DNA of 15,429 nucleotides. Origin: a virus (lineage: Duplodnaviria; Heunggongvirae; Uroviricota; Caudoviricetes). The position numbers and the translations under genes are program-made. The stretch lies in the IMG/VR virus record IMGVR_UViG_2540341028_000012. One strand, 5' to 3'. The notes beneath the pieces are model-generated. The model searched no databases and was not told where the DNA came from. It was given only the letters and a program-made list of their open reading frames with translations. Below, one piece after another: positions 3,510-3,932 of the stretch. How positions within the stretch are numbered: position 1 is the first letter of the stretch; the number at the start of each line of letters is the position of its first letter.

Positions 3510-3585
3510 TGGTGCCGACTACCGGAATCGAACTGGTGACCTACTGATTACAAGTCAGTTGCTCTGCCTGCTGAGCTAAGTCGGC
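3510..3585 (-). tRNA. tRNA-Thr (anticodon UGU)
   Basis: Reverse complement GCCGACTTAGCTCAGCAGGCAGAGCAACTGACTTGTAATCAGTAGGTCACCAGTTCGATTCCGGTAGTCGGCACCA; cloverleaf foldable, anticodon loop CTTGTAA, encoded CCA; one T-stem mismatch. Confidence 0.75.
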
Positions 3586-3587
3586 GC

Positions 3588-3664
3588 TGGCCCACCACCG
3601 AGGACTCGAACCTCGCACCGTCAACTTAGAAGGTTGATGCTCTATCCGGATGAGCTAGTGGTGG
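3588..3664 (-). tRNA. tRNA-Arg (anticodon UCU, reads AGA)
   Basis: Reverse complement CCACCACTAGCTCATCCGGATAGAGCATCAACCTTCTAAGTTGACGGTGCGAGGTTCGAGTCCTCGGTGGTGGGCCA; perfect acceptor and T stems, anticodon loop CTTCTAA, encoded CCA. Confidence 0.8.
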
Positions 3665-3665
3665 T

Positions 3666-3742
3666 TGGTGGCCCTTGCTGGACTTGAACCAGCGACCTGG
3701 CGATTATGAGTCGCTCGCTCTGACCAACTGAGCTAAAGGGCC
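3666..3742 (-). tRNA. tRNA with CAU anticodon, ileX-like (probable lysidine tRNA-Ile2 reading AUA; elongator Met not excluded)
   Basis: Reverse complement GGCCCTTTAGCTCAGTTGGTCAGAGCGAGCGACTCATAATCGCCAGGTCGCTGGTTCAAGTCCAGCAAGGGCCACCA; anticodon loop CTCATAA; resembles E. coli ileX from memory. Confidence 0.75.
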
Positions 3743-3751
3743 GGAGGCAGA

Positions 3752-3780
3752 ATAATAACCATATGTCATCACATCTGCAA
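3752..3780 (-). promoter_or_regulatory. Candidate sigma70 promoter for the tRNA cluster
   Basis: On minus strand -35 TTGCAG (3775-3780), 17-nt spacer, -10 TATTAT (3752-3757); predicted start about 2 nt upstream of the tRNA-CAU 5' end. Confidence 0.4.
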
Positions 3781-3830
3781 ACCCATCTGACCACCAGCAC
3801 GTTTAACGTCCTGTGCCGTTTTTCAGGTAT

Positions 3831-3852
3831 AAAAAAACCCGCATAAAGCGGG
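3831..3852 (-). terminator. Rho-independent terminator (minus strand) downstream of the small ORFs, upstream of the tRNA promoter
   Basis: Minus-strand stem CCCGC / GCGGG (3838-3842 / 3848-3852) with 5-nt loop followed by seven U (3831-3837). Confidence 0.5.
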
Positions 3853-3932
3853 CTCTTTCAAATGTCCATGTCTGCTATTCGCCTCGCGGTACAGCTTTGC
3901 GAAGCGTACAAGAATTGAAGCAGTTTTTTACG

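Follow-up and report, generated by a model that had tools for sequence, protein, structure and literature searches.

The DNA analysed here is a stretch of 15,429 nucleotides (nt), recorded in IMG/VR as IMGVR_UViG_2540341028_000012 and referred to below as the window, which shows 100% identity to contig AERO01000018.1 of assembly GCA_000193935.2, assigned to Shigella flexneri CDC 796-83 by two papers. Its subject is a cassette of four transfer RNA (tRNA) genes, the last of them truncated, which lies with a predicted promoter downstream of an intrinsic terminator and a split gene for a Q-like antiterminator, flanked by the insertion sequences (IS) IS911 and IS600. The tRNA genes were called with ARAGORN and with Rfam RF00005 (gathering score 29), which agree on the three full genes. 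The features of this segment, in the direction of transcription, are as follows.

4488..3933, minus: DUF1133 Q-like antiterminator gene, split (PF06576 covers both halves)
3860..3830, minus: intrinsic terminator (13-base-pair stem and U7 tail)
3780-3752, minus: predicted sigma-70 promoter (-35 box TTGCAG at 3780-3775, 17-nt spacer, -10 box TATTAT at 3757-3752)
3742..3666, minus: tRNA with CAU anticodon, ileX/ileZ type, tRNA-Ile2 (ARAGORN; Rfam 70.5 bits)
3664..3588, minus: tRNA-Arg(UCU), reading AGA (ARAGORN; Rfam 56.4 bits)
3585..3510, minus: tRNA-Thr(UGU), reading ACA (ARAGORN; Rfam 69.8 bits)
3506..3446, minus: tRNA-Gly(UCC), truncated, 61 of 75 nt (Rfam partial match and alignment with intact relatives)

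The initial annotation had placed an Arg(UCU) and an ileX-like CAU tRNA within 3510-3857; both programs and the alignments confirm them, with Thr(UGU) filling the remaining interval. The CAU tRNA aligns closely with ileX of Escherichia coli K-12 (about 90% identity) and ileZ of Sakai and F403, far from elongator metT and initiator metZ, and retains the C4-G69 and C5-G68 pairs, which are TilS determinants. Because its body is ileX-like, these two pairs are kept and an identical gene is named tRNA-Ile in RefSeq, the gene most plausibly specifies tRNA-Ile2, which would decode AUA after a presumed lysidine modification. The Arg(UCU) tRNA has an unusual C1-G72 first acceptor pair which, in the alignment, argN (UCG) and a Lys(UUU) variant share. 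Thr(UGU) differs from K-12 thrU at two positions, both in the D-loop, where it carries C16 and C20, and its anticodon arm is identical. The Gly gene breaks off exactly at the IS911 terminal repeat, so that its 3' acceptor strand and CCA, 14 nt in all, are missing, and its Rfam match is accordingly partial (3497..3443, 29.3 bits, model positions 10-63). What remains of the gene matches glyT and the intact copy of enteroinvasive E. coli (EIEC) at every position; as a remnant which cannot form an acceptor stem, it is predicted to be non-functional. Thr and Gly are separated by 3 nt with no Tyr gene between them, and by alignment they clearly derive from thrU and glyT; the likely sources of three of the four genes are host ileX and the thrU-tyrU-glyT-thrT-tufB operon.

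Promoter, terminator and Q-like gene

The initial annotation had described a promoter, TTGCAG-17-TATTAT, between the terminator and the first tRNA, and this stands as described, with hexamers and spacing conserved among relatives; a 9-nt G+C-rich discriminator separates the -10 box from G1 of the CAU tRNA. The arrangement TTGCA(G/A)-17-TATTAT-9-tRNA precedes the CAU tRNA in three contexts, namely downstream of DUF1133 genes, in the lambda-Q-type setting (689R5, PPompW, Evi) and in the 933W-type Stx2a setting, among which the spacer and the upstream sequence are diverged or unrelated. Scanning IMG/VR with the CAU tRNA core gave more than 114 copies. The strict motif was present in 75 of 114 and the relaxed form TTGNNN-17-TAT(T/C)AT-9 in 104 of 114; these copies represent 35 distinct upstream sequences, 29 of which carry the relaxed motif. 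In Sakai prophage Sp5, TTGCAG-17-TATTAT-9 stands ahead of ileZ2, and differential RNA sequencing (dRNA-seq) of uninduced Sakai, published by Sy, Lan and Tree (PMC7547250), gave a transcription start site (TSS) for Sp5 in the interval from tR' to stx2AB. In K-12 ileX, the -10 box lies 10 nt from the tRNA, a similar short-leader design. Since the motif is kept behind unrelated upstream DNA, and given the Sp5 TSS and the ileX layout, the best reading is that the cassette has a dedicated, Q-independent promoter, as motif conservation and the published homologous start site suggest.

The terminator that had been noted ahead of the tRNAs was confirmed as a hairpin of -18.7 kcal/mol (z = -5.0 against shuffled sequences), although a simple terminator scan overlooked it. 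No site of at least 9/12 for the late promoter PR' was returned by a scan between the stop codon of the Q-like gene (3933) and this terminator, and candidates picked by eye (TTGACG at the Q-like stop codon) were rejected for their poor -10 boxes.

What had been taken for a module of small open reading frames (ORFs) does sit with the terminator and the tRNAs, but its ORFs, of 104 and 87 amino acids, are two halves of one frameshifted Q-like gene, divided by one extra G at 4192. Because the intact DUF1133 homologue matches Phage_antitermQ (PF06530) above threshold and, weakly, the Q21 structure 6p18, the DUF1133 protein is predicted to be a Q-type late regulator. Only 13 base pairs (bp) of native DNA remain upstream of the gene before IS600. 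Both the G at 4192 and a second additional base, a T near 3925 downstream of the stop codon, are homopolymer-length differences lacking in four other copies; the frameshifted fragment is on record in one assembly only, and the essential gene metG is also split in that assembly. The Q-like frameshift may thus be a sequencing error.

Copies of the cassette are near-invariant from the terminator U-run to the last tRNA, and the sequence class switches inside the hairpin: at window positions 3838-3860 and in the relatives, the left arm and the loop vary with the class of Q module, whereas the U-run and what follows are common to all. The boundary between Q module and cassette, as judged from this change of class, therefore appears to lie inside the terminator hairpin.

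Relatives of the cassette and codon use

Comparison of 3446-4501 with prophages gave 98.6% identity to a prophage of E. coli FDAARGOS_944, and EIEC CFSAN029787 also has the block. The annotated genes of both run DUF1367, DUF1364, DUF1133, tRNA-Ile, -Arg, -Thr and -Gly, a class II holin, lysozyme, a lysis protein and terminase/head genes. The cassette alone shows one difference from FDAARGOS_944, and the promoter and three complete tRNA genes are unchanged relative to the intact EIEC copy except at a single position, 2 nt upstream of the -35 box. The cluster had been called phage-type, and this is upheld by the occurrence of this same promoter-plus-four-tRNA block between a Q-like gene and holin/lysozyme in EIEC prophages and by its homology to the ileZ-argN region of Shiga toxin (Stx) phages; ileZ-argN regions of Stx and other phages share 88-93% identity with the cassette. 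The window thus has what marks lambdoid late-region cassettes: tandem tRNAs on one strand, Q and a terminator directly upstream, homology and the promoter motif. The lysis-gene side, occupied by holin and lysozyme in intact relatives, is replaced by IS911.

Of 5426 complete E. coli genomes, 10 contain this block together with the upstream sequence seen here; in the two inspected, it lies in prophages. In the IMG/VR census of composition, which covered contigs extending far enough downstream, CAU-Arg(UCG)-Arg(UCU) was the set in 51, CAU-Arg(UCU) in 26 and CAU-Lys(UUU)-Thr-Gly in 13, and the exact window set occurred in 6. Two reference-genome entries have the full four-tRNA cassette and promoter, S. 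flexneri SFBU1023 (three copies) and strain ECMA0423 (two), each copy lying beside IS911 or IS600 in an eroded prophage. The literature places tRNA genes just downstream of Q in SfI, Sf6, ST64T, PS3 and p21 (PMC3636060) and between q and stx in Stx phages, in sets including Met-Arg-Arg, Met-Arg and Thr-Gly (PMC7366253).

The EIEC cassettes of FDAARGOS_944 and CFSAN029787 and those of SFBU1023 are essentially the same DNA as that of the window, with RefSeq naming their genes tRNA-Ile, -Arg, -Thr and -Gly, but they keep tRNA-Gly, whereas in the window Gly is truncated and both flanks are IS; the EIEC copies also have an intact Q-like gene, holin, lysozyme and head genes. The ileZ-argN-argO cassette of Stx phages (933W, Sakai Sp5, Stx2a_F403) likewise follows Q and tR' and precedes late genes, and it shares a homologous ileX-like CAU first tRNA, a C1-G72 second tRNA and the TTGCAG-17-TATTAT-9 promoter. 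It differs in its second slot (UCG in argN, UCU in the window), in having argO in place of Thr(UGU) and Gly(UCC) in slots 3 and 4, and in the accompanying antiterminator (933W Q against the DUF1133 type); the window cassette, in addition, is an orphan without downstream late genes. The Thr-Gly pair of Stx2f and the Asn-Thr pairs of SfI, Sf6, ST64T and p21 also lie just downstream of Q and include Thr(UGU) (PMC7366253; PMC3636060), but their composition differs, the comparison being one of published descriptions. K-12 ileX has the same short-leader promoter layout as the window cassette.

Two observations concern individual tRNAs of these relatives. The fourth tRNA of CFSAN029787 (locus L010, 9395-9466) is called as Val(UAC), with two anticodon-loop changes, a 3' acceptor deletion and no CCA, and has the look of a Gly gene in decay, not of a true Val tRNA. 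The slot-2 scaffold, defined by C1-G72 and a CC[A/G]CCA acceptor, bears different anticodons: Arg UCU (window 3588-3664), Arg UCG (argN) and Lys UUU, the last being found in many E. coli prophages as well as in phages 689R5 and PPompW (scaffold copies at locus L002, 6095-6171, and locus L012, 1603-1679). The Lys form has the loop CCUUUAA, with C33 replacing the near-universal U33, and reads U36-A-A-G-U-U where the AriB site of E. coli tRNA-Lys is U36-A-A-U-C-A; judging from these substitutions, it could be a Lys decoder resistant to PARIS.

Codon use was compared between 23 genes of the parent-type prophage and a chromosomal sample, with the following frequencies per 1000 codons.

ATA: prophage 9.6, chromosomal sample 1.1
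AGA: prophage 7.3, chromosomal sample 0.7
ACA: prophage 12.4, chromosomal sample 3.2
GGA: prophage 11.4, chromosomal sample 3.9

An excess of ACA codons has also been described in phage SfI (PMC3636060). In line with the usual explanation of phage tRNAs, the likely function of the cassette is to supply decoders of A-ending codons that host genes seldom use and in which phage genes are several-fold enriched. The initial annotation had proposed checking AGA and AUA use in the tail genes beyond IS600: there, ATA is raised, as is ACA, but AGA is ordinary, and the comparison is of limited meaning because these genes belong to a different prophage fragment.

Insertion sequence junctions and layout of the window

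The cassette and the Q-like gene form part of a mosaic of chromosomal, prophage and IS segments, arranged as follows.

1-352: molR fragment (WGR domain), adjoining metG
353-1615: IS600, first copy
1616-2197: molR fragment (DUF4132)
2198-3445, minus: IS911, full length
3446-4500: prophage scrap of 1.06 kilobases (kb)
4501-5764, minus: IS600, second copy, full length
5757 to about 15169: tail genes J', I, K, L (frameshifted), M, H, T and G'
5757..9206, minus (within the preceding entry): tail tip gene J, C-terminally truncated (Ig_GpJ_C matched to 124/135)
about 15170 to the window end: further IS3-family element

The initial annotation had rightly put IS600 between the cassette and J; its account needs amending in that all elements lie on the minus strand and that the fourth tRNA is cut by IS911, not by IS600. 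It had also pointed out that a place next to J is not the canonical one, and the junctions bear this out as a secondary IS600 rearrangement. The stop codon of J falls within IS600. In the sister genome JWSL02000004.1, which is 100% identical to the window over 4501-15169, IS600 interrupts J at the same point with a CAA/CAA target duplication and is followed by the remainder of J, lom and ipaH. In the window, the IS600 at 4501-5764 is flanked by CAA on the side of J and by TCC on the side of the interrupted Q-like gene, without the 3-bp target duplication. Simple insertion of IS600 at this point is excluded by these flanks, and since they contrast with CAA/CAA in the sister genome, the junction is best explained as a recombinant or deletion product secondary to insertion in J. 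On the other side, IS911 (2198-3445) joins tRNA-Gly to chromosomal molR, also without duplication (GGC against GGA). The position of the cassette beside J is thus read, from the junction sequences, as the outcome of IS-mediated rearrangement, with the tail genes coming from a different prophage fragment; the head module of the parent-type EIEC prophage differs (PBSX-type terminase, DUF1073, DUF2213). No exact match to the junction of truncated tRNA-Gly and IS911 was found in one genome per species, and both IS junctions are absent from the 5426 complete E. coli genomes.

Several further features accompany these junctions. Read-through past the truncated Gly gene would enter orfA of IS911 (3409..3071, minus) in the sense direction, making the tRNA promoter a possible external driver of IS911 transposase expression (3071-3445). 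Tail gene L (10554-11253, minus) is frameshifted after ...YPIQG, its remainder lying in another frame; because the independent assembly JWSL02000004.1 has identical DNA, the frameshift is probably genuine and inactivating. A further cut in the tail module, at G, is due to the IS3-family element at about 15170. The molR-like gene beside metG (WGR and DUF4132) is broken by IS600 without target duplication (TAA against ATG) and then meets IS911, and the far end of the tail genes, in the source contig, is linked through another IS to the kdsB-ycaR region. The break in molR and the kdsB-ycaR junction indicate large IS-mediated rearrangements.

Interpretation and significance

The explanation that we favour, with high confidence in the whole, is that the window holds a lambdoid tRNA cassette of the kind found between Q and the lysis or toxin genes, self-promoted and orphaned by IS elements, and that 3446-4500 is the sole part left in the window of a prophage otherwise erased by insertion sequences. 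The cassette would be a self-contained transcription unit, its promoter just downstream of the late terminator driving a polycistronic precursor, Ile2(CAU)-Arg(UCU)-Thr(UGU)-Gly(UCC), from which RNase P and 3' trimming would release mature tRNAs with encoded CCA ends. The four tRNAs would read AUA, AGA, ACA and GGA, topping up limiting decoders. In the window, IS911 destroyed the Gly gene and IS600 severed the unit from the remaining prophage, after which IS600 recombination or an adjacent deletion set the cassette beside the truncated J of another prophage fragment. Given that the promoter and three genes are intact, constitutive production of the Ile2, Arg and Thr tRNAs probably continues in this strain, without need of the broken Q.

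Several points weigh against this explanation. The promoter's match to consensus is by itself at chance level (2 sites in 1.4 kb against 1.5 expected), and since the conserved copies share descent, conservation of the motif is only partly independent evidence. The hairpin at 3860..3830 owes its label as the late terminator tR' to its position only. The host baseline for codon use is small (9 genes, 2831 codons). Some other copies are decaying, the Thr acceptor stem having lost 1 nt in one copy each of SFBU1023 (L141) and ECMA0423 (L142) and the Gly gene of CFSAN029787 being mutated in anticodon and acceptor, which argues against strong selection on every copy.

Some of these points would suit a silent relic, in which the tRNAs were transcribed only within the Q-antiterminated PR' late transcript, so that a cluster whose Q is frameshifted and cut off from early transcription would be dead and drifting. 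The location of the cassette downstream of a strong terminator after Q, the split Q with its 13 bp of native upstream sequence, the decay of other copies and the chance-level promoter match would all agree with this. It is nevertheless improbable, as the hexamers, the 17-nt spacing and the 9-nt distance to the tRNA are kept behind unrelated sequence, the primary TSS in Sp5 was mapped in the lysogen and not in induced cells (PMC7547250), and the promoter and three genes have stayed as in the intact EIEC copy apart from the single base near the -35 box.

Even less probable is that the cassette serves anti-defence supply, its tRNAs replacing host tRNAs cut by anticodon-arm nucleases (P2 Old, PARIS AriB) instead of matching codon use. 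P2 Old stops lambda through degradation of the host's tRNA-ThrU, a block that phage Thr(UGU) tRNAs relieve (PMC12445682); AriB cuts Lys(UUU), Thr(UGU) and Asn(GUU) (PMC12409363). After Q, Thr(UGU) or Asn(GUU) is frequent in lambdoid phages, with Lys(UUU) in some cassettes, and the window Thr differs from thrU in the D-loop alone, which is among the proposed AriB contact regions. Resistance to Old, however, maps to the anticodon arm, through lost CNG motifs and a shorter stem (PMC12445682), and added host-type tRNA-ThrU protected little or not at all. The anticodon arm of the window Thr equals that of thrU, including both CNG motifs, A37 and the AriB site UAAUC/A, which makes evasion of Old or AriB unlikely as the main role of this gene; a nuclease-resistant variant of the T5 type (Thr, Lys or Asn) was likewise rejected, as the window Thr has no substitutions at or near the Old/AriB sites in the anticodon stem. 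The other three cassette tRNAs are not among the main targets named in the two studies (PMC12445682; PMC12409363), and all four cognate codons are enriched in phage genes.

That the cluster is a rearranged host ileX and/or thrU-tyrU-glyT-thrT operon and not phage DNA, as the near-identity or identity of Thr and Gly to thrU and glyT and the roughly 90% identity of the CAU tRNA to ileX might suggest, is refuted: gene order and neighbours differ from those of the K-12 thrU-tyrU-glyT-thrT-tufB operon, tyrU, thrT and tufB are missing from the locus (the initial annotation had already set it apart from this operon by the lack of a Tyr gene), the intergenic spacers differ, the flanking Q-like gene and terminator are phage DNA, the few complete E. 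coli genomes with the block have it, where examined, in prophages, and none has either IS junction.

A more speculative extension of the favoured explanation, to which we give little credence, is domestication in Shigella and EIEC, where promoter and rare-codon tRNAs would have been kept, in up to three chromosomal copies, while the prophages were erased, and where decoders of AUA, AGA and ACA would aid the A+T-rich genes of the invasion plasmid. In a weaker variant of this idea, the two D-loop changes of Thr(UGU) may lessen PARIS-type cleavage.

Elements of this kind are already known and annotated, and the scrambling by IS around this one is typical of Shigella; beyond its correct annotation the locus matters little. 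It shows how Shigella prophages are broken up by IS600 and IS911, with unrelated fragments becoming joined, and that a self-promoted tRNA cassette can persist after its phage is lost. Expression of the surviving tRNAs, if it occurs, would add decoding capacity for AGA, AUA and ACA, from which the host may benefit and which might, as a conjecture, bear on the expression of A+T-rich virulence genes.

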